From: a virus
Taxonomy: Duplodnaviria; Caudoviricetes
IMG/VR virus record: IMGVR_UViG_3300044998_000126
Coordinates: 1-40,771 of that record
Strand: one strand, 5' to 3'
Length of the DNA: 40,771 nt
Shown here: piece by piece, positions 10,480 to 31,262 of the stretch
How positions within the stretch are numbered: the stretch's first letter is position 1
How the letters are laid out: each line of letters opens with the position of its first letter
Program-made: the position numbers and the translations under genes
The notes under the pieces: model-generated
What the model was told of the DNA's origin: nothing
Databases searched by the model: none
The model's input: only the letters and a program-made list of their open reading frames with translations

Positions 10480-10775
10480 TTTTGGATCGAAAAGAGAAGC
10501 AGCCTGTCGAGATCAAGGATTACCCGATCAACTACGCCGACTGGCTGGCGGAGTCCGGCGACACGCTGAGCAACGTCAATGCAGCCATTGAGTGCCTCAC
10601 AGATATAGCCGACAACTCGCTAACAGTGCATAATCTCACACTGGCGCCCACGGCGGTGTCTGTCTGGCTTTCTGGCGGCACGGATGGTCAGCGCTACAAG
10701 GTCACCGTAACGGTCGACACGGTCGGCGGACGGCGAGACCAGAGTGAGTTCATTGTGCGGGTAAAGGATTACTGA
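10476..10775 (+). CDS. Fibre-tail adaptor-like protein
   Basis: KQPVEIKDYPINYADWL...VWLSGGTDGQRYKVTVTVDTVGGRRDQSEF motif. Confidence 0.75.
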   Translation: MILDRKEKQPVEIKDYPINYADWLAESGDTLSNVNAAIECLTDIADNSLTVHNLTLAPTAVSVWLSGGTDGQRYKVTVTVDTVGGRRDQSEFIVRVKDY

Positions 10776-10776
10776 C

Positions 10777-11745
10777 ATGCCACAACTGTTTACCAACAAC
10801 GCTCGGGCGCTTCTGGTGTCGGGCATCACTGACTCAGCCACGTCGTTGACCGTTGAGGCATCAAAGGCCGACCTATTTCCCACAGCGAATACAGGAACCG
10901 GCCCCGTATCGGCCGCGACCAACTGGTTCAAGATCACGCTCCAGAACGCCGTAGGCGAAGTGGAGATCATCTACGTTCGGACCCGCACGGCAGGCTCCGC
11001 GATCATGTCAAACCTGCTGCGCGGCCAGGAGGGCACGACTGCTCGGAGCTTCAGTGCCGGCACGGTGGTGGGCCTGCGAATCACGGCGGCTGACGTGGAG
11101 GGCTCCATCGCGGCGGCTGCGAACTCGGTGCAGTTGACGGGCAACCAGACCATCGCCGGCACCAAGACGTTCAGCAACCAGATTGTTGCGTCTGGTGGGG
11201 TTCAGGGAGACGTGACTGGCAACGCCGGAACCGTCACCAACGGTGTCTACACCACGGGCGATCAGATCATTGGCGGGAACAAGACGTTTTCTGGTGACGT
11301 TAGGGTCGCTTCCCGCATACTTATGAACAATGAGATTTCGCCCAATACGACTACATTGCAGTGGGGCGATAACACGGGCTGGACGTTCCGCATGATGACG
11401 AACGTATCAGGTACCCCCACCCTCCGATATTCCTTCACCGACACCGGAAACTTCACCGCCACCGGCAACGTCACCGCCTTCTCGGACATCCGCCTCAAGA
11501 CCGACCTGACCAAGATCAGCAACGCGCTGGCGAAGGTCAACCAGCTCAACGGCTACACATACAAGCGTATCGACACGGGCGAGCGCCAGACCGGCGTGGT
11601 GGCTCAGGAAGTCCAGGCTGTGCTGCCCGAAGCCGTACTAGACAACGGCGAGACGCTGGCCGTGGCCTACGGGAACATGGTGGGTCTTTTGATCGAGGCG
11701 GTGAAAGAACTCACCGCTCGCGTGGATAAGCTGGAGGGCCGTTGA
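10777..11745 (+). CDS. Tail fibre protein with C-terminal peptidase S74 intramolecular chaperone
   Basis: LTGNQTIAGTKTF shaft repeats; FSDIRLK...GVVAQEVQAVLPEAV...VAYGNMVGLLIEAVKEL. Confidence 0.88.
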   Translation: MPQLFTNNARALLVSGITDSATSLTVEASKADLFPTANTGTGPVSAATNWFKITLQNAVGEVEIIYVRTRTAGSAIMSNLLRGQEGTTARSFSAGTVVGLRITAADVEGSIAAAANSVQLTGNQTIAGTKTFSNQIVASGGVQGDVTGNAGTVTNGVYTTGDQIIGGNKTFSGDVRVASRILMNNEISPNTTTLQWGDNTGWTFRMMTNVSGTPTLRYSFTDTGNFTATGNVTAFSDIRLKTDLTKISNALAKVNQLNGYTYKRIDTGERQTGVVAQEVQAVLPEAVLDNGETLAVAYGNMVGLLIEAVKELTARVDKLEGR

Positions 11746-17213: not shown

Positions 17214-18817
17214 TGTCTCGCAGACGTTCCTCCGTGGCGGATTTTTTGACCGCCTTCAATCAGGCGTACAACACGACCAACCAGGTCGTGCAGGATTTTG
17301 AGATCGCCAAGATCGCCAGAGCCAAGCCGCAGGAGTTCCAGGGCTTCACCGAAGGCCAGGGTAACGACCTGAGAGCGGCGGCCGAGCGCGGCGACAAGGT
17401 GGACATCCAATACAAGGATGATGGCCAGGGGAACCAGGTCTTTGACCGGTATGTGGTCACTCCCCAGATGCCCGAGGGCCAGGCGGGCCCAGTGCAACCG
17501 CGCCAGGTGGCCATGCAGGGCGTGACTGAGTTCATGGGCAACCGCGTTGCTGGCTCGATGAGTGACGATCAGGTCAACAGCGCACGACAGCGTGCCATGG
17601 CCGGCGTCATTTCGCGCAATGACCCGGTGCGTGGTGCCGCGATGATGCGCGACATCACCCGCGACGAGCGAGACACCACGCGCTTTGGCTGGGAGCGGCA
17701 GAACAACGAGCGCCAGATTCGACTTGATCTGGAAGCCGATGCGGACAAGGAGGCGTTGCGTGCGATCGACGTCAAGACTGGGGAGTGGTTCACCAATCGC
17801 CTGACGAACCCCGATGGAACCCGGCGAGAGGCGACGGTGGACGATCATCTAGCGGCTACCCAGTTCCGCGCTGCGCAGCTGATGGCGGCCGGCCGAACTG
17901 AAGCAGCTGGGCGCGTCATGAGCGAGTACAACGTCCAGAGCCTGATCAAGATCCAGCGCGATACCGCGGAGCGAAACGAGGCGATCGGCCAGGCCGCGGC
18001 TGCGCTGGCATCCGGCAACTTGCAGCCCCTGCAAGACTTCTACAACCGGTTCACACCAGACGGCGCCCAGGTCACGAGTATTTCCCGCAATGCGCAGGGC
18101 CAGATCGTGGTCGAGCGCACCACGGATGATGGACGCCCACTGCCGCCCGCCACGCTGGACCAGGGCCAGGTGCTGGCCTCTCTCAATAGCTTCAGTGATC
18201 CGAAGGCTCTATATAACTGGAGTCAGGACCAGTTCCGTAACAACTTGGCGTTGGCGGCAGAGCGCCGCGCTGGCGTACAGTTCGCCCAGGGCCAGATGGA
18301 TCGACGGCAGGCTCAGGCAGATGCCTCTGCGCGGTCGGAGGCTGCTGTTGCCTACGCTGAGTACAGGGCAAGAGCCCAAGGTAGAACGCTGAGCGATGCA
18401 GAAAGAAATGCCATCAGGACTGGCGTGATCGATGCGGTGCCGCGCTCAGATGGGAATGCGCCTGCCCAGGTTCAGTTGGCCCGCGCCATGGTGGAGTCTG
18501 GCCTTGCCCCTGACATGGCGACCGCCCTTGACAGAGTTATGAGTACGCCCTCGAAGTCGGCCCGCGACACGTACATCAATCTCATGAGGCCCGACTCATT
18601 CGGTAACACTCCAAATGAAGCCAGAATTGCACCCATCATGGAGGCGGTATTTGGTGCGGACTGGCGCGACCAGGTAAGGGGGCGGCCTGCCGGTCAATCC
18701 CGCGCGGCATCGCCTGCTCCAGCGCCGATTGCTCGTGGCCAGGTGGTCGATGGATACGAGTTCCGGGGTGGAGATCCGAACGACCAGAGAAACTGGCGTC
18801 AGGTCAACCGGCCGTAA
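17213..18817 (+). CDS. DNA ejection (internal virion) protein 2
   Basis: GAGG RBS, TGATG coupling, helical composition, lies between ejection protein 1 and the giant protein. Confidence 0.7.
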   Translation: MSRRRSSVADFLTAFNQAYNTTNQVVQDFEIAKIARAKPQEFQGFTEGQGNDLRAAAERGDKVDIQYKDDGQGNQVFDRYVVTPQMPEGQAGPVQPRQVAMQGVTEFMGNRVAGSMSDDQVNSARQRAMAGVISRNDPVRGAAMMRDITRDERDTTRFGWERQNNERQIRLDLEADADKEALRAIDVKTGEWFTNRLTNPDGTRREATVDDHLAATQFRAAQLMAAGRTEAAGRVMSEYNVQSLIKIQRDTAERNEAIGQAAAALASGNLQPLQDFYNRFTPDGAQVTSISRNAQGQIVVERTTDDGRPLPPATLDQGQVLASLNSFSDPKALYNWSQDQFRNNLALAAERRAGVQFAQGQMDRRQAQADASARSEAAVAYAEYRARAQGRTLSDAERNAIRTGVIDAVPRSDGNAPAQVQLARAMVESGLAPDMATALDRVMSTPSKSARDTYINLMRPDSFGNTPNEARIAPIMEAVFGADWRDQVRGRPAGQSRAASPAPAPIARGQVVDGYEFRGGDPNDQRNWRQVNRP

Positions 18818-18819
18818 AA

Positions 18820-18835
18820 CGTGGCAAGCATGGCA
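18820..18835 (+). promoter_or_regulatory. 16-bp motif, copy upstream of the giant gene
   Basis: Exact CGTGGCAAGCATGGCA, intergenic. Confidence 0.65.
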
Positions 18836-18869
18836 CCTTCAGGCTCTGTTGAAATGACGGGGCTTGAGC

Positions 18870-21800
18870 ATGTCAAAACCTTGGGAACGCGACTGGTCCA
18901 CACCTTCTGAATCTTCTGCCGGTCCAAAGCCATGGGAAAGAACCTGGGCGGCTGAAGCGCAGCCTGTCAGTCGCGGTGCAAGGGCTATTGCCTCTGATCT
19001 GGCTAAAGGCTTGGGTGGCGCAGTGGTTTCCGCTGTTGGCGCCGTACCGACTGCCGTAGGCCGAGCGGTACAAGAAGGCGGGGAAACACTTTTTGGGCTC
19101 AGTATGGATGAGGCCCGTCGCCTGGCTGAAGCCGATGGCACCCCTGAGAAGGCGCTGGAGTGGCACGAGCGCGCCAATCGACTCAACCCAATTTCTGCTG
19201 CTGGCCGGGCCATTGAATCAGGTGGGCAGTGGATAGGCCGTCAAGGCGATCGCTTGCGCGATTCACGTTCTGATGAGGCCAAGAAACGGGCTCGTCAATC
19301 CACCCCAGACGGCGATCTCATGCGTCCATCTACTTGGACGATGGGCGAGAACCCAACCGTCGAGGGTGTTGCTCAAGTCACTGCTGATGTGATTGGCAGC
19401 ATGGCTCCACCGATTGCCGCTGCGATTGCAACGCGTGGCCGCTCTGCCACGACGCAGATGCGCGTGGGTGGCGCAACAGTCGCCGGCCAGATTGGCGGCG
19501 CCGCCATGGAAGAGGCAGGCGACTACCTGAGCCAGTTCACCGACGATCAGCTACGACAAGCATCACCCGTGTTTCGTGATCTTGAGGCCAAGGGGTACAG
19601 CGCAGCCGATGCGCGAACCATCCTGAGCCGCGACGCAGAAAACCGAGCCGCCACGTTTGCTGCGCCTGTGGGTTATGTGGGTGGCCAGGCGACCGCCGCG
19701 ATCCTTGGCAAGCCTGGCGAACGGTTGGCCGGTGGTTTTGGAAGCATGGCCGCAAAGGCCGGCATATTGGGTGCTTTGGGTGCAACTGAAGAGGGTTTGC
19801 AGGAGGTTGCTGAAGGCGTGGCCACACGCGCCGGCATCAACAACGCCACGGGCATGGACCGCTCTTTAACCGAAGGCACCTTTGGCGAGTTCATCTTGGG
19901 CGCCAAGGGCGGCGGTGTCACGGGCGCAGGAAAGGGTGTGCTCGAAGGATTGCGTGCACGGCAAAGCGCTGATGGTGCCATCACTGATGATGGGACCAGC
20001 CCGACTGTCACACCGGAAGGCGGAAACATGCCGCCCGCCGCTGCTGCGCCAGAGGCGCCGCTTGTCACATCCCAATCCAGTGATCCGACTTCGCGCTTGG
20101 CGGAGTTGGATATCCTGGCCGAGCAGCGCGACCTGACGCCGGCCGAGCGCCAGGAAACGATTGACCTGCTGACCGCCCTGCAAGATGAGCAAGACGCAAC
20201 GCAAGGAACCGAAGGAGACGCCCCGCAAGCCCCGGCAGTGGAAGCGCCAAAGGCAACGGGAGGCGATGGAGCCGCCGCTGCTGGAGTACCCGCAGAACCT
20301 GCCGCCCCTAATGTGGAAGCCGCTGGGCTAGAGCCCGAGCGTGAGGCGGCCAAGCGCACCAATTTCTGGACCTGGATCGGCACCAAGGGCTACAAGCCCG
20401 CCGATGTCAAGGTCGGCACACCGCTGCACGCCGAGCTGAAGGCGGAGTTTGACGCGCTGCGCAACGGCCAACCGCTGCCGTCCAAGGCGCAGCCGGCCGC
20501 GCCGTCTGTCGATCCGGTGGCCGCCGTCACGGCATGGCGGGAGCGGTTCCCGGCCAAGCCGCCGTCCGGCATGAGTGAGGAGCAATTGCACCAGTTTGCC
20601 GGCGAGCGCCGCAACGCGGATGCGCAACTGGTGCAGCAACTGGAGCCGCAGGCCAATGGGCTGGTGCTGCCCACGGCCACCGGGTTCGGTGGCATCACGC
20701 AAGACCCGAGCGAGGCGGGCAAGTGGCGCATCACCCGCTTTGATGCGGCCATGGAGCCGGTCGGCCATGAGGTCTACAACAGCGCCCGCGAGGCGATCGA
20801 GAACCTGCTGCCGCGCTTCCAGGCGCCGCGGGCCAAGCAGGCAGAGCCCATCCTGCCGCCGCTGCAACCGCAGCCGAGCGTGGACTTGCAAAACCGTGAC
20901 CGCTCGCGCGCTGCGTCCGTGGTGCAGATGAGCGACATCGCCCGCAACCCCGATTACATGCGCCTGGGGCCAAGCCGCACTCCGGACAGCGGGGCGCCGA
21001 TGGTGTTTGCCGTGGGCGACGACGTGAGCCGCATCCCGGCGGAGAACTTCGGCCGCCAGGACGTGGCCGTGATGAGCGACGGCCAGCGTGTGCCGTTCCG
21101 CTACGCCGTGGTGGATGCCACGAAGGTCAACCCGTCGAACTTTGCCGATGGCCGCCAGAACCCGGAGTTCAGCAGCACGACGCCGGGCACGATCAAGGCG
21201 CTGAACAACGGCCGCACCGCAGGTGTTCGTGCCGCGCATGAGATGGGCACGGCCGGCGAGTACGTGGCCGGCATGCAAGCCGACGAGGCGATGCACGGCA
21301 TCCCGGCCGACGTGATCGCGCGCACGCCGAATCCGATGCTGGTGCGCGTCTACTCCGATGCGGCCAACACCGCCAACATGGCCGCCAAGAGCCAGGGCCA
21401 GGGCCTGGGCATGAGCCCGGCCGAGTTGGCCCGCCAGGACGCGCCGCTGATGGATTCGAGCGTGCTGGGCGTGTACGAGCCGGGCGAGATCACCAGCGCG
21501 GCCAACCGCGACTTCGTGCGTGCGTTCATTGGCAAGCTGCAAGCCGCCGGCCAGGACGTGGCCGGGATGATGACTGGCGACGGGCAACTGTCGCAGGACG
21601 GCCGCAAGCGCATCCAGGCCGCGCTGATGCAGGCCGCCTACGGCGATGTTGATCTGGTGGAGGAGATGTTTGACTCCACCGACACCGACATCAAAGCCAT
21701 CGGCGAGGCGCTGAAGGCCGTCGCCGGGCAGTGGGCCAACATGCGCGACTCGGCCCGACTGGGTGTGATCAACCCGCAGGTGGACGTGACCGAGAACCTG

Positions 21801-24800
21801 GTGCAGGCGGTGAACCTGATCCGCAAGGCCCGGCGCGAGCGCATGAGCCTCAAGGATCTGGTGGCGCAGCCCGACCTGATGACGGGCGAGACGCCGCACG
21901 CGCTGACCGTGGGCATACTGCGCGTGTTCTACGATGGCCAGAACTTCACGCGCGCGGTCGGCCGCGACAAAGTGGTGGCCAAGCTGGAGGAATACATCCG
22001 AGCGGCCATGGCCACCTCGGCAGACGCCGGTCTGTTTGGCGGCGAGCCTGTGTCGCCGGCCGACATTTTGGCTACCATCACCGGACAAGGAGCACTGGAT
22101 GCGCAAACTCAACCCGAAGAAGGCCGAGGAGAACCCGCTGGCAGCGGCGATTCTGGGGGCCGTGTTGGTGAAGTACGGCCGGCTGGAGAACAGCCAGACG
22201 CAGATCGAGGCGGGCGAGCGTCTGCTGAAGATCGCGGAGCAGAACCAGGACAAGATGCCGCGCCTGAAGCCCGACAGCAAGATGGCCAAGGCGATCAAGG
22301 CGGCCAAGGAGGCGATGGCGCCGGCCAAGGCGGTACCGCCGGAGGACAGCAAGGAAGCGCTGAAGGCCAAGCCGACAGACTGACCCTGCCTGTCAAAAGC
22401 CCGCTGGACGCCGACGCCAAGAAGCCCGCGCGAAAGGCAAAGGGCGAAGGTGTAAAGGCAAAGCCGGTAGAGGCCGCCAGCGACCAGCCGGCCATCGACC
22501 GCGAGAAGCTGGACAAGGATTTCCGCACCTTCCCGACACAGATCCTGAACAACCTGCTGGAGCGCGGCGAGGCCGCCAAGCTCTACAAGGCCGCGGGCGT
22601 CAAGGGCGCCAGCGCGTTTGGCGACTTGGCCATGGATGACAAGGCCGCCGCCTACGTCAAGTTCGTGCAGCAGGGCGGAAAGCCGGTCGAGAACCTGCCC
22701 AAGGACTACAACGCCTGGGTGAAGAGCGAAGAGCGCGCCGCCGAGGTGCGCCGGCTGCAATCCGACCGCGTGGTGCGCCAGGAAAACGGCAAGCCCTTCA
22801 AGAGCAAGACCAGCGCGCAGCAGTACCAGGAGCGTTACGACCTGACCGGCACGCATGAGGTGGTGGCGGTCGATGGCGGGTTTGAGCTGCGCCAGCTTTC
22901 GCCGGCCGCGCAGGCTGAGCTGAAGCGCAAGGCCGAGGGCCGCGAGAGCTACACCGAGGCGCAGGCTGCCGTGGCCGAGGAAATGGGCATCGGTCAGACG
23001 CCGGATGGCGAGTGGGACGCCACCGACGAGCAGTTTGACGAGATGGAGCGCCGCGTGCAGGCAAGGATGCGCGGCGAGCCTGCCGAACCCCTGCTGACCA
23101 ACCCCACCCGTGAGGACGTGCTGGCCCAGCAGGAGCGCGCCGAAAACGCGCAGGCCGCCGACGAGCGCGAGCAGATCCGCCGCGAGAGCGAAGCGGGCGC
23201 CGGCACCTTCAGCCTGGAGATGCAGGACGGGCGGCAGGACACGACGGCGGACCTGTTCCGCCAGACGGCACCCAAGCCGACCCGCCCGGCGGTCTCTCCC
23301 AACACCATCTTTACCGAGGACGCCGCGGCCAAGGCGCGTGAGCGCCTGCGCAAGAAGCTGTGGCAACTCAACAGCGGCCTCGACCCGGAAATGATGATGG
23401 ACGGCATCACGCTGGCCGGCTATCACATCGAGAAGGGCGCCCGCACCTTCGCCGCCTACGCCCGCGCGATGCTGGCGGACCTGGGCGACGGCGTGCGCCC
23501 CTATTTGAAATCGTGGTACATGGGTGTCAAATACGACCCACGGGCCGCGGGCTTTGACGGCATGGACGACGCCGCCACGGTGGAGTCTGCCGATCTTGAC
23601 GCGCTGACGGCGCAGGAGAATGACGATGTACCAGGTTCCGATGTCCGTGTGGAACGCGATCGCCAAGAGCCAGCCCCTGGGCCAGCCGTGGGCGACGCTG
23701 TTCCGGATGACGCCGGAGGATCTGCCGAGGGGAATCGCGCAGATGGTGGACGCACCCGCCGAGGCGGCCGGCGCGGACAACCGGACGGTGCTGGCGTATC
23801 GACTGGTGGCGCCGTTGCTGGTGGAGAACGAAGCGATCTCGGCCTACCTGGAGGAGACCCGGCAGCCGAACATGCGCGCGTGTCTACCGGAGCTGACTTC
23901 GGTGAACGAGGCAGTGACATTGGCGTCGATGGAGTATCGACTGACCCCATCCCAGCAACGCAAGTTGACGCAGTTGCTACGCGCGGCGATGAGCGGGCAG
24001 AGCGCGAGCAGGCCCAGCGACGCGCTGACCGCATCCCGGTAATTGCCGGCAACGCGGAGAACATCCGCCAGACGCTGCCGTATCTGCTGGCAGGCCAGCA
24101 GGAGGATGTGGCCAAGGCCGAAGCCCGGTTTGCGCAACCGGACGGCTACGGGATGCTGTTCACCAACGGCACCGGCACCGGCAAGACCTTCACCGGCCTC
24201 GGCATCGTCAAGCGCTTCGAGCGCCAGGGCAAGGGCAATGTCCTGATCGTCGTCCCCGACGACAAGATTGCATCCGACTGGATCGAGTCCGGCCGCGCGC
24301 TGGGCCTGACGATCACGGCGCTGCGCGACACCAAGGACGCCGGCCGCGGCATCACGGTGACGACTTACGCCAACCTGGGCGAAAACGACGCGCTGGTGTC
24401 GCGCCAATGGGATCTGTTCGTAGCTGACGAAGCGCACGAGCTGATGAAGTCGGCCGATGGCTATGTGACGAAAGGCCTGGCAGCGCTGCGCGCGCTGTCG
24501 CTGCACCCGGATGGCGCCCACACCCGCTACGAAATGCTCAACCGGCCGGACATTCAGAAGGCGGCCGCCCTGGACGAGCAGATCAAGGTCAACCTGCGCA
24601 TGATGTCCCGCGACGACACCATGGATGTCATGGTGGAGTCGCTGCGCCGGGAGAACCAGCGCATGGAGGCCGAGCTGGCCGCCCTGTACGCCAAGCTGGA
24701 CGCCGCCCGTACCGCGGTGCGCGAGGACGTGAAATCGCGCCAGGGCGCCAGCCGCCCCCGTGCGGTATTCCTGTCGGCCACGCCGTTCGCCTACGAGTTC

Positions 24801-27800
24801 AACATCGACTGGGCCAACGGCTATCTGTTTGATTACAACGAAGGCCAGTCGGACGAGAGCCTGGAGTTCCGCGGCTACAACCAAGGCAGCAACCGCGACC
24901 GCTTCTTCATGACCCACTTCGGGTACACGATGCGGTACAACAAGCTGACTAAGCCGGCCCCGTCCAAGGTGGACACCGGCCTGATGCAGCGGCAGTTCAA
25001 TTCCTGGTTGAAGTCGCGCGGGGTGCTGTCGGCCCGGATGCTGGACGTGCCGGCCGACTACGACCGCAAGTTTGTGCTGGTGGATTCTGCCATCGGCAAC
25101 CGCATTGACGAGGCGCTGTCCTGGCTTGACGAGCAGCGCCTGGCCGACAAGACCGGCGGTTTCAGGCTGCTGCGCGACACCATCGACGAGAAGTTTGACT
25201 ACCTGAGCCGACGCTACCTGCTGGAGGCGATCAAGGCGACGGAATCGGTGCCGATTGTGCGCGAGCACCTGCGCCTGGGCCGCAAGGTCGTTGTGTTCCA
25301 CGACTACAAGAAGGGCGGCGGTTTCAACCCGTTCGACATCAAGCCGTCCGACGCGCCGGCGCTCGATGGCGAGCGCCAATCCGATCAGCAGGCGTTCAAT
25401 GACACGCTGGCCACCTTCCGCGAGAAGTTCAAGGATCTGGTGGACGCCCCGCTGGGGCGGCTGCCGAGCCCGATCGAGGTGTTCAAGCGCGAGTTCCCTG
25501 ACGTTCTGCTGGTCAACGGCGACGAGAAGAAGGCCGACCTGCTGGCGCGCTACAAGAAGTTCCAGGACGACGCGAGCGGCCCGCAGGTGATGCTGGTGCA
25601 GTCGGCCAAGAACAAGGGATGGAGCGGCCACGACACGACGGGCAAGCATCAGCGCGTGCTCATCAACCTGGGCATGCCGACCGCGCCGACCCTGGCCATC
25701 CAGCAGGAGGGACGGATCTACCGCACGGGCCAGGTCAGCAACGCCATCATCCGCTACCTGAACACAGGCACCAACTGGGAGCGCTGGGCGTTTGCCACGA
25801 CGATCGCCAGCCGGGCCAGCACAGCCGAGAACCTGGCCATGGGCGAGCAGGCGCGCGCCCTGAAGGATGCCTTCGTCGCTGTGTTTGAAGAATCGGACGC
25901 CTACCCGCCGGGGCACGAGGGCGAGGGCACAGGCGGCAAGGCGCGCGACGCTGCGGCCAACAACGCCTTGACGGCCTACGACCGCGCCAAGTACTTCTAT
26001 TGGGCAACCCAGAAGAAGAACAGCAAGACCAAGGCGCAGGAGGGCACGGACTACTTTGCCACGCCGGAGCCGGTCGGCCTGAAGATGGCCGAGTGGCTGG
26101 CCCTGCGTGGCGGCGAAGAGGCACTGGAGCCCAGCGCCGGCCATGGCGCGATTGCCCGCTGGCTGCCGGATACGGTCAAGCGCACCGCCATCGAGCCGTC
26201 CGGCGCGCTGCGCGCCCGCCTGGCGATGGTGATGAGCCCGAAGGATGACCGCATCATCGACGGCGTGTTTGAGGACCACCACGTCAGCAACAAGTACGAC
26301 GGGATCGTGATGAACCCGCCGTTCGGGGTGGGCGGCAAGACGGCCATCGAGCACTTGGCCAAGGCGGCTACGCACCTGCGCGACGGAGGCCGCATCGTCG
26401 CGCTGATCCCGACCGGACCGGCCGCAGACAAGCGTTACGAGCAGTGGATGTACGGCACCGAGCAGCGTCCGGTCAAGCCGCTGCTGGAGCATCCGACCCT
26501 GGGCTCGATCTACGCCGGCGACACGGTTCGCACCCGCGCCGCCTGGGCGCCAGAGGGTCGCGTGGTGCGTGCGCGTGATGGCGCGCTGATGGTAAAGGTC
26601 GAGGGGCAGCCCGGAGAGAGCATGGTGTCCCTGGGCGCCGTGACCGAGGTGCAGCCGACAGGCGTGCGAACCCGCGAGGTCCGTCCGGCCGAAGGCATTT
26701 ACACCGTGGGCGAGATCCGACTGCCGCAGGTGACGTTTGAGCGTGCCGGCACAAAGGTGGCCACGCGCATCGTGATCCTGGAGAAACAGTCCGACCGCGA
26801 GCGCGCGCCGAATGCCCGCGCGCCGATCGACCTGACCGATGTCACAGACATTCGGGAGCTATTCGACCGCCTGGAGAGGCTGGAAATGCCCGGCCGCCGC
26901 ATGACGGCCGCGCAAGAGCAGGCCGCAGAGGCCGAGCGTGCCGAGCAGGAGCGCGCCAGGCAGCGCGAGGAAGCCCGCGCCAAAAAGGCCGAGCCGGGTG
27001 CGCCGAAGGCGGCCAACCCCGATGCCGTTGGCACCGTGGACCGGGCTGGCCATGAAATCATCGAGCACGTCACCCAGAAGGGCAAGACGATCCGCGGCAT
27101 CGTGCGCACGGATCTTTTGAAGGAAGAGGCGCAGAAGATCGACCCGTACACCTTCCGCAAGTATGGCGGCTGGTTCATCCGCGAGGTGTATCTCAAGTCT
27201 GACGACGCCCCGATGGCCAGCCGCGGCCGCGCCGGCGGCATGACGGAATCCGCCGTGCGCCAGGTGGCCGACACCATCACGTCACGCTGGACCAAGGCGC
27301 CGACCGTGGTGGTGGTGCCGAACATGCAGGACATGCGCGTGCCGGAGGCCGCGCGCCAGGAGGACGCCCGCCAGCGCGCCGCCGGCGCGACGGGGGTGCC
27401 GCGCGCCTTCTACGACCGCGGCACCGTGTACCTGGTGGCCGATGGTCTGAAGAGCGTCACCGACGCCGCCGAAGCGCTGTTTCACGAGGCGCTGGGCCAC
27501 TACGGGCTGCGCGCCGTGTTCGGCTCCGCGCTGGACGGCATCCTGGACCAGATCGCCGTGGCACGGCCGGACCTGATGCGACCGAAGGCCAAGGAGTACG
27601 GCAAAGATCTGAAGGTGCTGAAGCAGCGCCGCGAGGTGGCCGAGGAAGTCCTGGCCGAAATGGCGCAGACGAAGCCGAACCTGGGATTCGTCAAGCGCGC
27701 GATCGCAGCCATCCGCACCTGGTTGCGCCAGAACGTGCCGGCCCTGAAGGACATGGCGCTGACGGATGCCGAGATCATCAACAACTTCATCCTGCCCGCG

Positions 27801-30800
27801 CGCGGCTGGGTGGAGCGTGGTGAGCGGGCGATGCGGCCGGGTGGGAAGGTGGCGATGAGTCGTGATGGCGCCGACCAGCCGCAAGACCAGACCCAGACCG
27901 AAGCCTTCCGCCGCTGGTTTGGTGACAGCAAGGTGGTGGATGCCGATGGCAACCCGCTGGTGGTGTATCACGGGACGCGGGCTGACATCACTACGTTTGA
28001 CCCTGAACGCGCTGGCTCAAAGACTGATTCTGGTGCGTGGGGCAGAGGAATCTACTTCGCAGCCGATCCCGAATACGCTGGCGCTTATGCGGGGCGGACT
28101 GAGGGATCGAACATCGTTCCGGCGTACATCTCCTTGCAAAACCCGCTTGTCGTGGACGCGCGAGAACGCACGGCGGCTATTCGTGGGATCGGGCTTGAGG
28201 TGCCTCGCGGCGACCCGACGCCCGCGTGGTCGCAGCAATTTGCCAATGCGGTAGCACAACGCGGTTACGATGGGGTGATCGTGACATTGGACGGGGCTCC
28301 GGCGGAGATCGTCGCCTTCCGCCCCGAGCAGATCAAGAGCGCCACCGGCAACCGCGGCACGTTCGATCCCGAGAACCCGGACATCCGCTTTAGCCGCTCC
28401 ACCCTGGGCAACACCCCGCCCACGCCGCCGCAGAACCCAAACGCCTGGCAGAAGCTGAAAGCCAAGGCGCTGGAGCTGACCAACCCGGACGCGATCGAGA
28501 GCCTGATCTACGAGTACCAGGACAAGAACATTGACCTGAAGCGGCTGCGCGATCACATCAAGGAGCTGGGCGGCACGATCACGGACCTGAACGACGCCTA
28601 CCTGGGCGAAGAGCTGTACCACAAGCGCCTGGCCAAGCGGACGCAGGACTTTTTGAGCGAAGAGCTCAAGCCGCTGCTGGCCGACATGCGCGCCCGCGGG
28701 GTGGACATGCCGACGCTGGAGCGCTATCTGCACGCCCGCCATGCGCCCGAGGCCAACCGCGTGCTGGCCGAGCGCAACCCGAATGCCCAGATGATCGAGG
28801 CCGGCAAGGCCAAGGCGCTGGCCGAGGTGAAGGCGCTGGAGGTGCAACTGCAACGCGCCCGCGCGCAGGGCACGGCCACCAAGGCGGTCGAGCAGGCGCT
28901 GGAGCAGGCGCTGGCCGAACGCGACCGCTGGACCGGGGCGCAGGCCTTCAAGGGCACCGAGGCCGAGCGCCTGAGCCTGTCGGGCATGAGCGACGCCGAG
29001 GCGGCCGCTTTCATGGGCGGTCTGCCGGCCGGCCAGAAGGTGCACCTGGAGGCGCTGGCTGCCAGGGTGGATGCGATGCAGGCCAAGACGCTGGAGGTGC
29101 TGGAGAAATATGGCCTGATGGACAAGGCCACGCTGGACGCCTGGCGCAGCACGTACCAGTTCTATGTGCCGCTGCACCGTGACGAAGCCCATCCGGATGC
29201 CGTGAGCCACCCGATCGGGCAGGGCTTCAGCACCAAGGGCGATGCGTCGAAACGCCGCACCGGCTCCAACGAGAAGGTGACGAACATCCTGGCGCACATT
29301 GCCATGCAGCGCGAGGCGGCGCTCACCCGCGGTGAAAAGAACCGCGTGGCCAAGAAGCTGTACCTGATGGCCGCGCAGAACCCGGACCCGGAGATCTGGT
29401 CGGTGGACAAGCCGCCGATGATGAAAACCGTGGACCGGGAGACGGGCTTTGTACGCACGACGGTGGACCCGACGTACCGCAACAAGCCGAACGTGGTGAT
29501 GGTGCGCATCGGCGGCAAGGACCACGCGATCACGTTCAACGAGCGCAACCCGAAGGCGGTGCGGATGGCGCAGTCGATCAAGGGCGCGGACGTGGGCGAC
29601 CTGAACGCCTTTGAGTCGATCATGGGCAAGGCCACCCGCTGGCTGGCCAGCGTCAACACCCAATACAACCCGATCTTCGGCATCATCAACTTCGCCCGTG
29701 ACGTGCAGGCCGCCATCCTGCAACTGAGCACGACACCGCTGAAGGGCCAGGAGCGCGCCGTGGCCGCCTATGTGCCGGCGGCGCTCAAGGGCATCTATGC
29801 CGAGGTGCGCAGCCGCCGCAAGGGGCAGTCTCGCGGCACGGGGCAGTGGGCCAAGCTGTGGGAGGACATGCAGGACGAAGGCGGCACCACCGGATACCGC
29901 GAGCTGTTCATCACGCCGGATGAGCGGGTGAAGGCGCTGACCAAGGAGCTCAACGCGCTGGAGCGCGGCAAGGTATCCGAGGCCGCGCATGCCGTGGTGG
30001 ACTGGCTGTCCGACTACAACGAGACGATGGAGAACGCCGTGCGCCTGGCCGCCTACAAGGTGGCGCTGGACCAGGGCATGAGCAAGGAGCGCGCCGCCAG
30101 CCTGGCCAAGAATCTGACGGTCAACTTCAACCGCCGCGGCCGGCAGACGGCCCGACTGGGTGCGTATTACGCCTTCCTGAATGCCGCGATCCAGGGCACG
30201 ACCCGCATGGTGGAGACGCTGCGCGGGCCGCTGGGCCGCAAGATCATGCTGGGGGGTGTTATGCTGGGCGCCGTGAATGCCTTGATCGGCATGGCCATGA
30301 TGGGCGGCGACGACGAAGAGGACAACTGGGAGAAGATCCCCGACTTTGTGAAGGAGCGCAGCCTCATCGTCCCGCTGGGGCGCGAGGACTACCTGGCCAT
30401 CCCCATGCCGCTTGGCTATCACGTGTTCCCGAACCTGGGCCGCAAGGCGGTGGAGATGATGATGCACGACGATCCGACCAAGGGCGTCGGCAGCCACATT
30501 GCGGAGATGCTGCGCATCACGCTGGATGCATTCAACCCGCTGGGCGGATCGGAGAACCTGGCGCAGATGGTGACGCCGACGCCGTTCGACCCGGCCGTCG
30601 CGCTGATGATGAACCGCGACTGGACGGGCAAGCCGATCTACCGCGAGGACAACAGCAACCTGGACCCAACGCCGGGCCACCAGCGCACCAAGGACACCGC
30701 GAGCGCCTTCAGCAAGGCCGTGTCCGAGGCGCTGAACAAGATCACGGGCGGCACGGACTACCAACCGGGCGCCGTGAGCGTGACGCCGGACCAGATCGAC

Positions 30801-31262
30801 TACGTGATCGGGCAGATCACCGGCGGCCTGGGCCGCGAGATCCTGAAACTGGAGAACTCGATCACGGCCCCGCTGACCGGAGACGAGTTGCCGGCCTACA
30901 AGATCCCCCTGGTGGGCCGTCTATACGGCAACACCCGCGGGCCGGCCAACAACGCGGAGCTGTTCTACGAGCACGTGCGCGAGCTCAACCAGATCGAGAA
31001 CGAGATCCGCGGCCGCGCCCGAGACGGCGGCGATGTGGCGGGCTACATGGCCGAGGAACCGCTGTCCGCTCTGGTTGGCATGGGCAACGCGGCGGAGAAC
31101 CAGATCCGCAAGCTGCGACAGTACCGCGCGGAGGTGGTGCGCCGCGCCGAACCGGGCTACCAGGATGAGGTCAAGCGCATCAACGAGCAGATGGGCGAGG
31201 TGATGAAGCTGCTCAACCAGGAGGTGCGGCGGGCGAAGATGGAGGCGGCGGCTGCCCAGTAA
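18870..31262 (+). CDS. Giant polyvalent DarB-like internal virion protein (~4130 aa): ddrB-like ParB domain, SF2 helicase, N6-adenine methyltransferase, zincin-like peptidase, ART-PolyVal, LPD38-like C-terminus
   Basis: LQNRDRSR/NNGRT (~20880-21450); GTGTGKT (24168), DEAH (24426), SAT, QQEGRIYR; EPSAGHG and NPPF (26313); HEALGH (27483); YHGT...GIYFA...GYDGVI...EIVAF (~27890-28400); WEKIPDFVKERSLIVP...IPMPLG. Confidence 0.9.
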   Translation: MSKPWERDWSTPSESSAGPKPWERTWAAEAQPVSRGARAIASDLAKGLGGAVVSAVGAVPTAVGRAVQEGGETLFGLSMDEARRLAEADGTPEKALEWHERANRLNPISAAGRAIESGGQWIGRQGDRLRDSRSDEAKKRARQSTPDGDLMRPSTWTMGENPTVEGVAQVTADVIGSMAPPIAAAIATRGRSATTQMRVGGATVAGQIGGAAMEEAGDYLSQFTDDQLRQASPVFRDLEAKGYSAADARTILSRDAENRAATFAAPVGYVGGQATAAILGKPGERLAGGFGSMAAKAGILGALGATEEGLQEVAEGVATRAGINNATGMDRSLTEGTFGEFILGAKGGGVTGAGKGVLEGLRARQSADGAITDDGTSPTVTPEGGNMPPAAAAPEAPLVTSQSSDPTSRLAELDILAEQRDLTPAERQETIDLLTALQDEQDATQGTEGDAPQAPAVEAPKATGGDGAAAAGVPAEPAAPNVEAAGLEPEREAAKRTNFWTWIGTKGYKPADVKVGTPLHAELKAEFDALRNGQPLPSKAQPAAPSVDPVAAVTAWRERFPAKPPSGMSEEQLHQFAGERRNADAQLVQQLEPQANGLVLPTATGFGGITQDPSEAGKWRITRFDAAMEPVGHEVYNSAREAIENLLPRFQAPRAKQAEPILPPLQPQPSVDLQNRDRSRAASVVQMSDIARNPDYMRLGPSRTPDSGAPMVFAVGDDVSRIPAENFGRQDVAVMSDGQRVPFRYAVVDATKVNPSNFADGRQNPEFSSTTPGTIKALNNGRTAGVRAAHEMGTAGEYVAGMQADEAMHGIPADVIARTPNPMLVRVYSDAANTANMAAKSQGQGLGMSPAELARQDAPLMDSSVLGVYEPGEITSAANRDFVRAFIGKLQAAGQDVAGMMTGDGQLSQDGRKRIQAALMQAAYGDVDLVEEMFDSTDTDIKAIGEALKAVAGQWANMRDSARLGVINPQVDVTENLVQAVNLIRKARRERMSLKDLVAQPDLMTGETPHALTVGILRVFYDGQNFTRAVGRDKVVAKLEEYIRAAMATSADAGLFGGEPVSPADILATITGQGALDAQTQPEEGRGEPAGSGDSGGRVGEVRPAGEQPDADRGGRASAEDRGAEPGQDAAPEARQQDGQGDQGGQGGDGAGQGGTAGGQQGSAEGQADRLTLPVKSPLDADAKKPARKAKGEGVKAKPVEAASDQPAIDREKLDKDFRTFPTQILNNLLERGEAAKLYKAAGVKGASAFGDLAMDDKAAAYVKFVQQGGKPVENLPKDYNAWVKSEERAAEVRRLQSDRVVRQENGKPFKSKTSAQQYQERYDLTGTHEVVAVDGGFELRQLSPAAQAELKRKAEGRESYTEAQAAVAEEMGIGQTPDGEWDATDEQFDEMERRVQARMRGEPAEPLLTNPTREDVLAQQERAENAQAADEREQIRRESEAGAGTFSLEMQDGRQDTTADLFRQTAPKPTRPAVSPNTIFTEDAAAKARERLRKKLWQLNSGLDPEMMMDGITLAGYHIEKGARTFAAYARAMLADLGDGVRPYLKSWYMGVKYDPRAAGFDGMDDAATVESADLDALTAQENDDVPGSDVRVERDRQEPAPGPAVGDAVPDDAGGSAEGNRADGGRTRRGGRRGQPDGAGVSTGGAVAGGERSDLGLPGGDPAAEHARVSTGADFGERGSDIGVDGVSTDPIPATQVDAVATRGDERAEREQAQRRADRIPVIAGNAENIRQTLPYLLAGQQEDVAKAEARFAQPDGYGMLFTNGTGTGKTFTGLGIVKRFERQGKGNVLIVVPDDKIASDWIESGRALGLTITALRDTKDAGRGITVTTYANLGENDALVSRQWDLFVADEAHELMKSADGYVTKGLAALRALSLHPDGAHTRYEMLNRPDIQKAAALDEQIKVNLRMMSRDDTMDVMVESLRRENQRMEAELAALYAKLDAARTAVREDVKSRQGASRPRAVFLSATPFAYEFNIDWANGYLFDYNEGQSDESLEFRGYNQGSNRDRFFMTHFGYTMRYNKLTKPAPSKVDTGLMQRQFNSWLKSRGVLSARMLDVPADYDRKFVLVDSAIGNRIDEALSWLDEQRLADKTGGFRLLRDTIDEKFDYLSRRYLLEAIKATESVPIVREHLRLGRKVVVFHDYKKGGGFNPFDIKPSDAPALDGERQSDQQAFNDTLATFREKFKDLVDAPLGRLPSPIEVFKREFPDVLLVNGDEKKADLLARYKKFQDDASGPQVMLVQSAKNKGWSGHDTTGKHQRVLINLGMPTAPTLAIQQEGRIYRTGQVSNAIIRYLNTGTNWERWAFATTIASRASTAENLAMGEQARALKDAFVAVFEESDAYPPGHEGEGTGGKARDAAANNALTAYDRAKYFYWATQKKNSKTKAQEGTDYFATPEPVGLKMAEWLALRGGEEALEPSAGHGAIARWLPDTVKRTAIEPSGALRARLAMVMSPKDDRIIDGVFEDHHVSNKYDGIVMNPPFGVGGKTAIEHLAKAATHLRDGGRIVALIPTGPAADKRYEQWMYGTEQRPVKPLLEHPTLGSIYAGDTVRTRAAWAPEGRVVRARDGALMVKVEGQPGESMVSLGAVTEVQPTGVRTREVRPAEGIYTVGEIRLPQVTFERAGTKVATRIVILEKQSDRERAPNARAPIDLTDVTDIRELFDRLERLEMPGRRMTAAQEQAAEAERAEQERARQREEARAKKAEPGAPKAANPDAVGTVDRAGHEIIEHVTQKGKTIRGIVRTDLLKEEAQKIDPYTFRKYGGWFIREVYLKSDDAPMASRGRAGGMTESAVRQVADTITSRWTKAPTVVVVPNMQDMRVPEAARQEDARQRAAGATGVPRAFYDRGTVYLVADGLKSVTDAAEALFHEALGHYGLRAVFGSALDGILDQIAVARPDLMRPKAKEYGKDLKVLKQRREVAEEVLAEMAQTKPNLGFVKRAIAAIRTWLRQNVPALKDMALTDAEIINNFILPARGWVERGERAMRPGGKVAMSRDGADQPQDQTQTEAFRRWFGDSKVVDADGNPLVVYHGTRADITTFDPERAGSKTDSGAWGRGIYFAADPEYAGAYAGRTEGSNIVPAYISLQNPLVVDARERTAAIRGIGLEVPRGDPTPAWSQQFANAVAQRGYDGVIVTLDGAPAEIVAFRPEQIKSATGNRGTFDPENPDIRFSRSTLGNTPPTPPQNPNAWQKLKAKALELTNPDAIESLIYEYQDKNIDLKRLRDHIKELGGTITDLNDAYLGEELYHKRLAKRTQDFLSEELKPLLADMRARGVDMPTLERYLHARHAPEANRVLAERNPNAQMIEAGKAKALAEVKALEVQLQRARAQGTATKAVEQALEQALAERDRWTGAQAFKGTEAERLSLSGMSDAEAAAFMGGLPAGQKVHLEALAARVDAMQAKTLEVLEKYGLMDKATLDAWRSTYQFYVPLHRDEAHPDAVSHPIGQGFSTKGDASKRRTGSNEKVTNILAHIAMQREAALTRGEKNRVAKKLYLMAAQNPDPEIWSVDKPPMMKTVDRETGFVRTTVDPTYRNKPNVVMVRIGGKDHAITFNERNPKAVRMAQSIKGADVGDLNAFESIMGKATRWLASVNTQYNPIFGIINFARDVQAAILQLSTTPLKGQERAVAAYVPAALKGIYAEVRSRRKGQSRGTGQWAKLWEDMQDEGGTTGYRELFITPDERVKALTKELNALERGKVSEAAHAVVDWLSDYNETMENAVRLAAYKVALDQGMSKERAASLAKNLTVNFNRRGRQTARLGAYYAFLNAAIQGTTRMVETLRGPLGRKIMLGGVMLGAVNALIGMAMMGGDDEEDNWEKIPDFVKERSLIVPLGREDYLAIPMPLGYHVFPNLGRKAVEMMMHDDPTKGVGSHIAEMLRITLDAFNPLGGSENLAQMVTPTPFDPAVALMMNRDWTGKPIYREDNSNLDPTPGHQRTKDTASAFSKAVSEALNKITGGTDYQPGAVSVTPDQIDYVIGQITGGLGREILKLENSITAPLTGDELPAYKIPLVGRLYGNTRGPANNAELFYEHVRELNQIENEIRGRARDGGDVAGYMAEEPLSALVGMGNAAENQIRKLRQYRAEVVRRAEPGYQDEVKRINEQMGEVMKLLNQEVRRAKMEAAAAQ
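20185..20331 (+). CDS. Possible nested 48-aa ORF in the +1 frame of the giant gene
   Basis: MSKTQRKEPK...LLEYPQNLPPLMWKPLG*. The +1 codons end mostly in G/C while host-frame codons become A/T-ending. No clear RBS. Confidence 0.35.
   Translation: MSKTQRKEPKETPRKPRQWKRQRQREAMEPPLLEYPQNLPPLMWKPLG
22099..22383 (+). CDS. Nested 94-aa protein overprinted in the +1 frame of the giant gene
   Basis: AAGGAG RBS 22087-22092 with 6-nt spacing; protein-like helical sequence; host frame becomes G/E/Q/D low complexity over this span. Confidence 0.75.
   Translation: MRKLNPKKAEENPLAAAILGAVLVKYGRLENSQTQIEAGERLLKIAEQNQDKMPRLKPDSKMAKAIKAAKEAMAPAKAVPPEDSKEALKAKPTD
23626..24042 (+). CDS. Nested 138-aa protein overprinted in the +1 frame of the giant gene
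   Basis: AGGAG RBS 23614-23618 with 7-nt spacing to ATG 23626; globular composition and GC3-rich codons; host frame G/R/D-rich over the same span. Confidence 0.8.
   Translation: MYQVPMSVWNAIAKSQPLGQPWATLFRMTPEDLPRGIAQMVDAPAEAAGADNRTVLAYRLVAPLLVENEAISAYLEETRQPNMRACLPELTSVNEAVTLASMEYRLTPSQQRKLTQLLRAAMSGQSASRPSDALTASR

Follow-up and report, generated by a model that had tools for sequence, protein, structure and literature searches.

Small genes nested in the +1 frame of a giant polyvalent phage gene and the enzyme modules beside them

The giant gene and its +1 reading frames

The window (the whole 40,771-nucleotide stretch of DNA that was analysed) is a 40.8-kb virus record with a completeness of about 69%. 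Genes for a P22-like portal, capsid, fibre and internal-virion proteins (Pfam, PHROG) lie upstream of a giant gene, in and across which the following features were placed.

18870..31262, plus strand: giant polyvalent (DarB-like) gene, 4130 aa, open ORF, terminal gene of a P22-like podovirus structural module
20185..20331, plus strand: nested ORF A, candidate only, +1 frame, 48 aa, basic
20862..22079, plus strand: ddrB-ParB (aa 665-828) and unnamed domain Y (aa 840-1070); Pfam PF18763, E 1e-16, with PHROG matches
22087..22092, plus strand: Shine-Dalgarno (SD) site AAGGAG of nested gene B, 6 nt before 22099
22099..22383, plus strand: nested gene B, +1 frame, 94 aa, basic, following ParB+Y
23268..23603, plus strand: domain X (aa 1467-1578), outer frame, matched by X-like profiles
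23614..23618, plus strand: SD site AGGAG of nested gene C, 7 nt before 23626
23626..24042, plus strand: nested gene C, +1 frame, 138 aa, predicted all-helical, unnamed family
24045..26459, plus strand: SWI2/SNF2 Strawberry-notch-like helicase, then N6-adenine methyltransferase (MTase); GTGTGKT at aa 1767, DEAH at 1853, NPPF at 2482
27939..28364, plus strand: ART-PolyVal (Pfam)
30321..30914, plus strand: LPD38 (Pfam)

Pfam searches of the outer frame recovered ddrB-ParB, a SWI2/SNF2 helicase, an N6-MTase, ART-PolyVal and LPD38 in a late-gene context, the same content that the main text of Iyer et al. 2017 (PMC5512222) gives for polyvalent proteins, among them proteins that unite a methylase-SWI2/SNF2 dyad with DdrB-ParB. 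The giant protein belongs with these in two respects, as unrelated enzymatic and LPD domains are joined in a single chain (Pfam, PHROG) and its gene is placed among the late virion genes. The MTase is homologous to that of P1 DarB (E 9e-8), but the order differs, the window running from helicase to MTase and DarB from an N-terminal MTase to a SNF2 helicase. Given its gene position and the related DarB-like/LPD38 proteins, which have been detected in the virions of phages JC1 and phi24B, the product of 18870-31262 is probably a virion or ejection protein. In phage genomes of this kind, about one fifth of the length is taken by the DarB-like giant gene, which annotation treats as a single gene. 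A HEALGH zincin-like motif (aa 2872; window 27267-27824), present in 38 of the 105 distinct hosts of C described below, may mark an autoprocessing peptidase.

A first-pass annotation of this DNA had proposed three ORFs in the +1 frame of the open 4130-aa ORF, beneath linkers with atypical codons, and both observations hold: the ORFs are present as listed, and GC3 within the overlaps is 0.40-0.50 in the outer frame versus 0.86-0.92 in the +1 frame (0.82 for the whole giant gene). It had also described the SD sites as strong for B and C, which they are, and as weaker for A, where no SD of 4 or more nt lies upstream of 20185. Openness of the +1 frame by itself is weak evidence for genes, and it is homologues that supply the proof; in 5000 redraws of the codons under a fixed outer protein, 86% left the +1 frame open for A, 10% for B and 5.5% for C. 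None of the three ORFs has a Pfam family above cut-off, a PHROG or a PADLOC match, and no sigma-70-like promoter was found in 18500-24300. GC3 is also low in the N-terminal ~480 aa (window 18870-20300) and in the ART domain (27870-28300), regions in which A is the sole gene-like +1 ORF detected, a pattern that suggests recent module swaps; a +1 ORF at 27862-28254 across the ART domain was rejected as a gene since the codon signature is absent.

Conservation of C, B and A

ORF C is certainly a conserved gene, as established by its conservation, frame, SD, per-frame selection and predicted fold. Eight phage records, corresponding to six distinct phages (Skulduggery, Parlo, ZX1, two Vibrio phages and Ruegeria 45A6), were matched by tblastn at 30-40% identity, and each of the six carries C, complete with ATG and SD, in +1 of its giant gene. 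The expectation that standard annotation would miss nested genes is borne out by these cultured phages, in all six of which C is unannotated. Searching with C gave 67 entries, which include the window and some duplicates; 65 are nested, all in +1, and two stand alone, with three of the nested entries in short or broken hosts and one truncated to 32 aa. Searching with the helicase, from seeds taken from C-bearing loci and in a set that overlaps the first, returned a nested +1 C in 79 of the best 80 of 353 loci, the single miss being an AT-rich phage in which the helicase has a gene of its own, outside any giant gene. One further sequence (P0075), in which C is joined to the helicase start, was taken as a likely frameshift artefact.

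Among 108 distinct C sequences, +1 identity was greater than outer identity in 5756 of 5778 pairs, and in close pairs changes are concentrated at third +1 codon positions (0.052/0.042/0.126). Alignment on the outer frame removes the bias toward +1 in this comparison, and +1 was again more conserved in all 136 pairs so aligned (0.56 vs 0.36), compared with none of 136 for the helicase control. An SD of 4 or more nt precedes C in 93 of 105 distinct hosts versus 14% of 1826 background ATGs, where the start scored was the start codon nearest the profile start, with ATG preferred in the helicase-selected loci.

The C family comprises 616 clusters at 50% identity, with a median pI of 5.1. AlphaFold predicts a fold of eight helices (pLDDT 88, pTM 0.82), and only one residue is invariant, so that no obvious catalytic set is present. 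A comparison of the structure with BFVD gave no match at E<=0.001, the best structural match reached Z 4.7 (rmsd 4.0 over 72 aligned residues), a search of the ESM Atlas gave no usable match, and the best PDB sequence match had E 0.18. Weak Pfam matches never involved more than three members, and PF14198 (TnpV) was absent among the best 25 of 47 weak families found with 72 members; a hint of the PrmC/HemK N-domain, in 3 of these 72, was set aside as weak.

Sequence comparison makes a strong case that B, which annotation likewise misses, is a member of a set of small +1 genes behind the ParB+Y module. B has 14 database homologues, with nested homologues in 10 other loci, and no tblastn match among cultured phages; in pairs aligned on the outer frame, +1 was the more conserved in 28 of 36. 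In the contigs of three close relatives the flanks have diverged and the alignment (85%) resumes at 22098, one base before the ATG of B. ParB+Y was found in 25 of the 105 hosts, and a +1 ORF of 45-107 codons comes right after Y in 24 of these, by a lax test under which two of the 24 are doubtful by eye and the one miss has a truncated Y. The B-type genes relocate together with ParB+Y to new positions. At four loci (L028, L034, L041 and L043) the B-type gene has its stop codon directly against the ATG of C, so that the pair makes up a nested operon of two genes.

For A, the odds of its being a gene are about even. Four homologues have a similar start and share the end (W/Y)KxxG-stop, which is built from rare NTA outer codons in five of five; a separate scan for region A returned no match. 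With alignment on +1, that frame is the more conserved in all 10 pairs; with alignment on the outer frame, it is so in 5 of 10. The first-pass annotation had looked to homologues for conservation of the +1 frame and of its ribosome-binding site, and by this measure C is certain and B strong, with no such outcome for A; selection per frame likewise favours +1 for C and B but is split for A.

Neighbouring modules, free copies and the origin of the linkers

The placement of the nested ORFs beside enzymatic modules needs some correction. C does lie directly before the helicase and B after ParB, but domain Y intervenes between ParB and B, and X is directly upstream of C. A helicase-MTase query returned exactly the eight phage records of C, and in a set of 105 distinct hosts, part of which was selected by helicase, a Walker A motif lies downstream of C in 103, at most 70 codons away in 95 and across a gap of 124-359 codons in eight. 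One of the two misses is a contig end and the other a Delftia acidovorans prophage (L058, ~8133) with a clean in-frame deletion of the helicase-MTase and an intact C. Even at 20-30% identity C keeps its place ahead of the helicase, while upstream domains change or move. X-like profiles match 97 of the 105 hosts, at most 60 aa from C in 84, and X is the outer-frame part retained in orphan fusions with C. On these comparisons the helicase-MTase is the stricter link to C, with X, linked almost as tightly, a serious alternative as partner. The nested genes are tied to specific modules: where modules have been shuffled, C is still found with the helicase-MTase, as B-type genes are with ParB+Y. In one host (L046, ~10540-11640) an insertion of ~370 aa lies at the helicase Walker A (GTGKAQPLD...), which we take from its motif to be a likely intein.

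Copies of C also occur outside giant genes. In two Burkholderiales MAGs, stand-alone C genes (L056, 1948-2322; L057, 10001-10375) lie among housekeeping genes, directly after an epimerase-like gene, in a cluster of 28 members, and the former outer frame contains 5-6 stops. These copies may be decaying, as they have no SD and differ from each other by 6 non-synonymous versus 8 synonymous codon differences. Among the top 150 C representatives, 34 are at least 165 aa long; the extra part matches another nested family in 8 of the 34 (E 2e-12 to 2e-3, scored against a small seed set, so that the weakest are tentative), with examples in Bradyrhizobium genomes and on an integrase/VapE island, and X-like parts occur in 6. 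The stand-alone fusions of C, with nested-type proteins and X, are as follows.

L152, 5986-7230: C fusion
L150, 325-1590: C fusion
L151, 1339-2343: C fusion
P0172, P0219, P0200, P0224, P0230, P0234: C fusions

One architecture, composed of nested family 14, an X-like part, C and an unnamed domain, recurs at ~60% identity in five sequences (three metagenome loci, P0219 and Bradyrhizobium japonicum WP_354269332.1). Its gene context was seen for L152 alone, where the C fusion lies next to a BrxH/DrmD-like helicase on an island that also encodes a VapE-like protein and a tyrosine integrase. A sample of 301 genomes of one class and 41 of one genus gave no new orphan, the sole new match being nested, and a plasmid search for C gave just one phage-like record.

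The nesting extends beyond A, B and C. Across the 105 hosts, the host codon model was better matched by the candidate's own frame for 83 of 995 +1 candidates, versus 0 of 109 +2 candidates. The +1 genes form many small families, with a pI >9 in 43 of 61; part of this basic bias may reflect the acidity of the outer frame. Other +1 ORFs lie directly behind GGDEF-like (three loci) and InPase (one locus) domains, and most of the 48 flanks scanned beside +1 genes held no Pfam domain. Complete HNH endonuclease genes (phrog_3377, E 1e-44 to 4e-52) occupy the +1 frame in three hosts.

L106, 4642-5181: nested HNH gene, +1 frame inside an open giant ORF
L117, 4147-4626: nested HNH gene, +1 frame inside an open giant ORF
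L076, 5701-6273: nested HNH gene, +1 frame inside an open giant ORF

The outer frame across these genes is the same type of linker. The HNH genes predate the linkers, so the outer frame is the overprint at these loci; extending from them, C and B are likely to be the older frame as well, with the linker as the overprint. The proposal that each module carries its own small partner overprinted in a linker survives in part: C and B are conserved genes tied to modules, but A is not established and the direction of overprinting is reversed. Through nesting in +1, homing endonucleases might also be able to insert with neither intron nor intein. Ordinary genes of this phage, read at -1, give 67% G/A/D/E/R/Q/P and 2.0 stops per 100 codons (48% and 3.3 at -2), compared with 75-90% G/A/D/E/R/Q/P, 1-5% hydrophobic residues and zero stops in the outer frame of the real overlaps. 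As this composition goes beyond that of -1 read-through, the outer frame has also been selected as a linker.

Possible roles of the nested proteins

The reading that we prefer, and to which we give an even chance, is that C and B would act as module-specific binding partners that restrain their enzymes in the producing cell. C would bind the helicase-methylase region, possibly through domain X, and B would bind ParB+Y; late mRNA would give both the giant protein and the small nested proteins, and the enzymes would be unrestrained once ejected into a new cell. As to origin, we infer that separate enzyme-plus-partner cassettes may have been fused by reading through the partner gene one base off. 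In GC-rich DNA the out-of-step frame would be stop-poor and would yield a linker rich in Gly/Ala/Asp/Glu/Arg/Gln/Pro, and the fusion product would be one packageable polypeptide. For bacteria or islands, retaining a copy of this kind, stand-alone or fused, would provide a ready antidote against incoming phage enzymes. Although the ART domain would be an obvious enzyme to need an antidote, no nested partner accompanies it, which speaks against a universal rule of one antidote per enzyme. Physical adjacency alone produces co-inheritance of C and its module, and, as the nested HNH genes illustrate, a passenger is not necessarily a partner.

Several known systems offer parallels. In lambda, Rz1 lies in the +1 frame of Rz. 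The embedded spanins Rz/Rz1, in the passages of PMC9144972 that deal with them, are alike in that a small gene sits inside a gene on the same strand and the products cooperate. The window gene differs in that several unrelated nested genes lie within one gene of 12 kb, each beside a module; from phage to phage the nested set varies, and the overprint seems to be the outer linker. In polymorphic toxin systems a small immunity gene follows each enzyme, and orphan and concatenated copies occur in bacteria. The orphan and fused copies of C resemble such orphan and poly-immunity genes and would fit an antidote-like role, although the single gene context, that of L152, is thin ground for the likeness; unlike in these cassettes, the partner genes here lie within the enzyme gene and C precedes its module. 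The likeness is one of genomic linkage. Abstracts and main-text passages of the literature held no description of such nested partner genes; the main text of PMC5512222 has nothing on overlap, linkers or low complexity, and there "nested" refers to a hairpin.

Somewhat unlikely, though on several points an equally good fit, is that C and B are assembly helpers like Ulx and Hdf of P1, which would fold or load the giant protein and might be packaged and ejected along with it. In P1, ulx adjoins darB. According to PMC9024508 and PMC12810830, the 17-kDa Ulx is found in heads, so packaged and not excluded, and is listed as an aid to DarB localisation. Ulx, Hdf and DdrA resemble the nested proteins in being small, in having genes near that of a giant virion MTase-helicase and in being required by it; their genes are separate, their products are packaged in heads, and C is not similar to Ulx (hhalign probability 0.1%). 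A helper role agrees with the sole stand-alone helicase, which has no C and would not need loading, and with C outlasting helicase loss in L058 and tracking X, but it explains poorly the multi-nested-protein fusions kept by bacteria and islands, and a different small gene for each enzyme module.

It is unlikely that the nested genes, though real, are simply neighbours from an operon that a read-through fusion has trapped, and that what they do late in infection or in the lysogen has nothing to do with the domain beside them. HNH endonucleases have been trapped alike, -1 read-through of ordinary genes is already linker-like, and L058 keeps C with no helicase; against this, C holds its helicase neighbour across the divergence described above despite upstream change, and B-type genes travel with ParB+Y. 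It is highly improbable that linker composition alone accounts for the +1 frames and that these contain no genes: linker codons starting with G or C do force a high +1 GC3, and A is usually open by chance, but the reading is refuted for C by conservation, SD enrichment, fold and stand-alone copies, and is possible for A only.

The preferred reading of C and B as restraining partners can be widened, tentatively and as a rather unlikely proposal, to one in which giant ejection proteins would be built from enzyme-plus-antidote cassettes, the antidote gene doubling as the linker, and bacteria or satellite-like islands would have shed the enzymes and stitched the antidotes into single poly-antidote proteins able to disarm what incoming phages inject. 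Orphan antidotes in bacteria are possible and, if true, would constitute an undescribed layer of anti-phage defence. The restraining role also provides a testable answer to how phages make DNA- or nucleotide-targeting enzymes without harming their own production, and the cultured phages Skulduggery, Parlo and 45A6 carry C. Out-of-frame read-through that creates linkers suggests a route by which multidomain proteins grow. Giant genes hide a large and uncounted set of small genes, with the C family alone contributing its 616 clusters without a structural match, and codon-optimising or deleting such linkers would silently destroy them. Further unannotated +1 genes lie in Parlo (L002, 9952-10167), ZX1 (L003, 10336-10548) and 45A6 (L006, 11461-11613).
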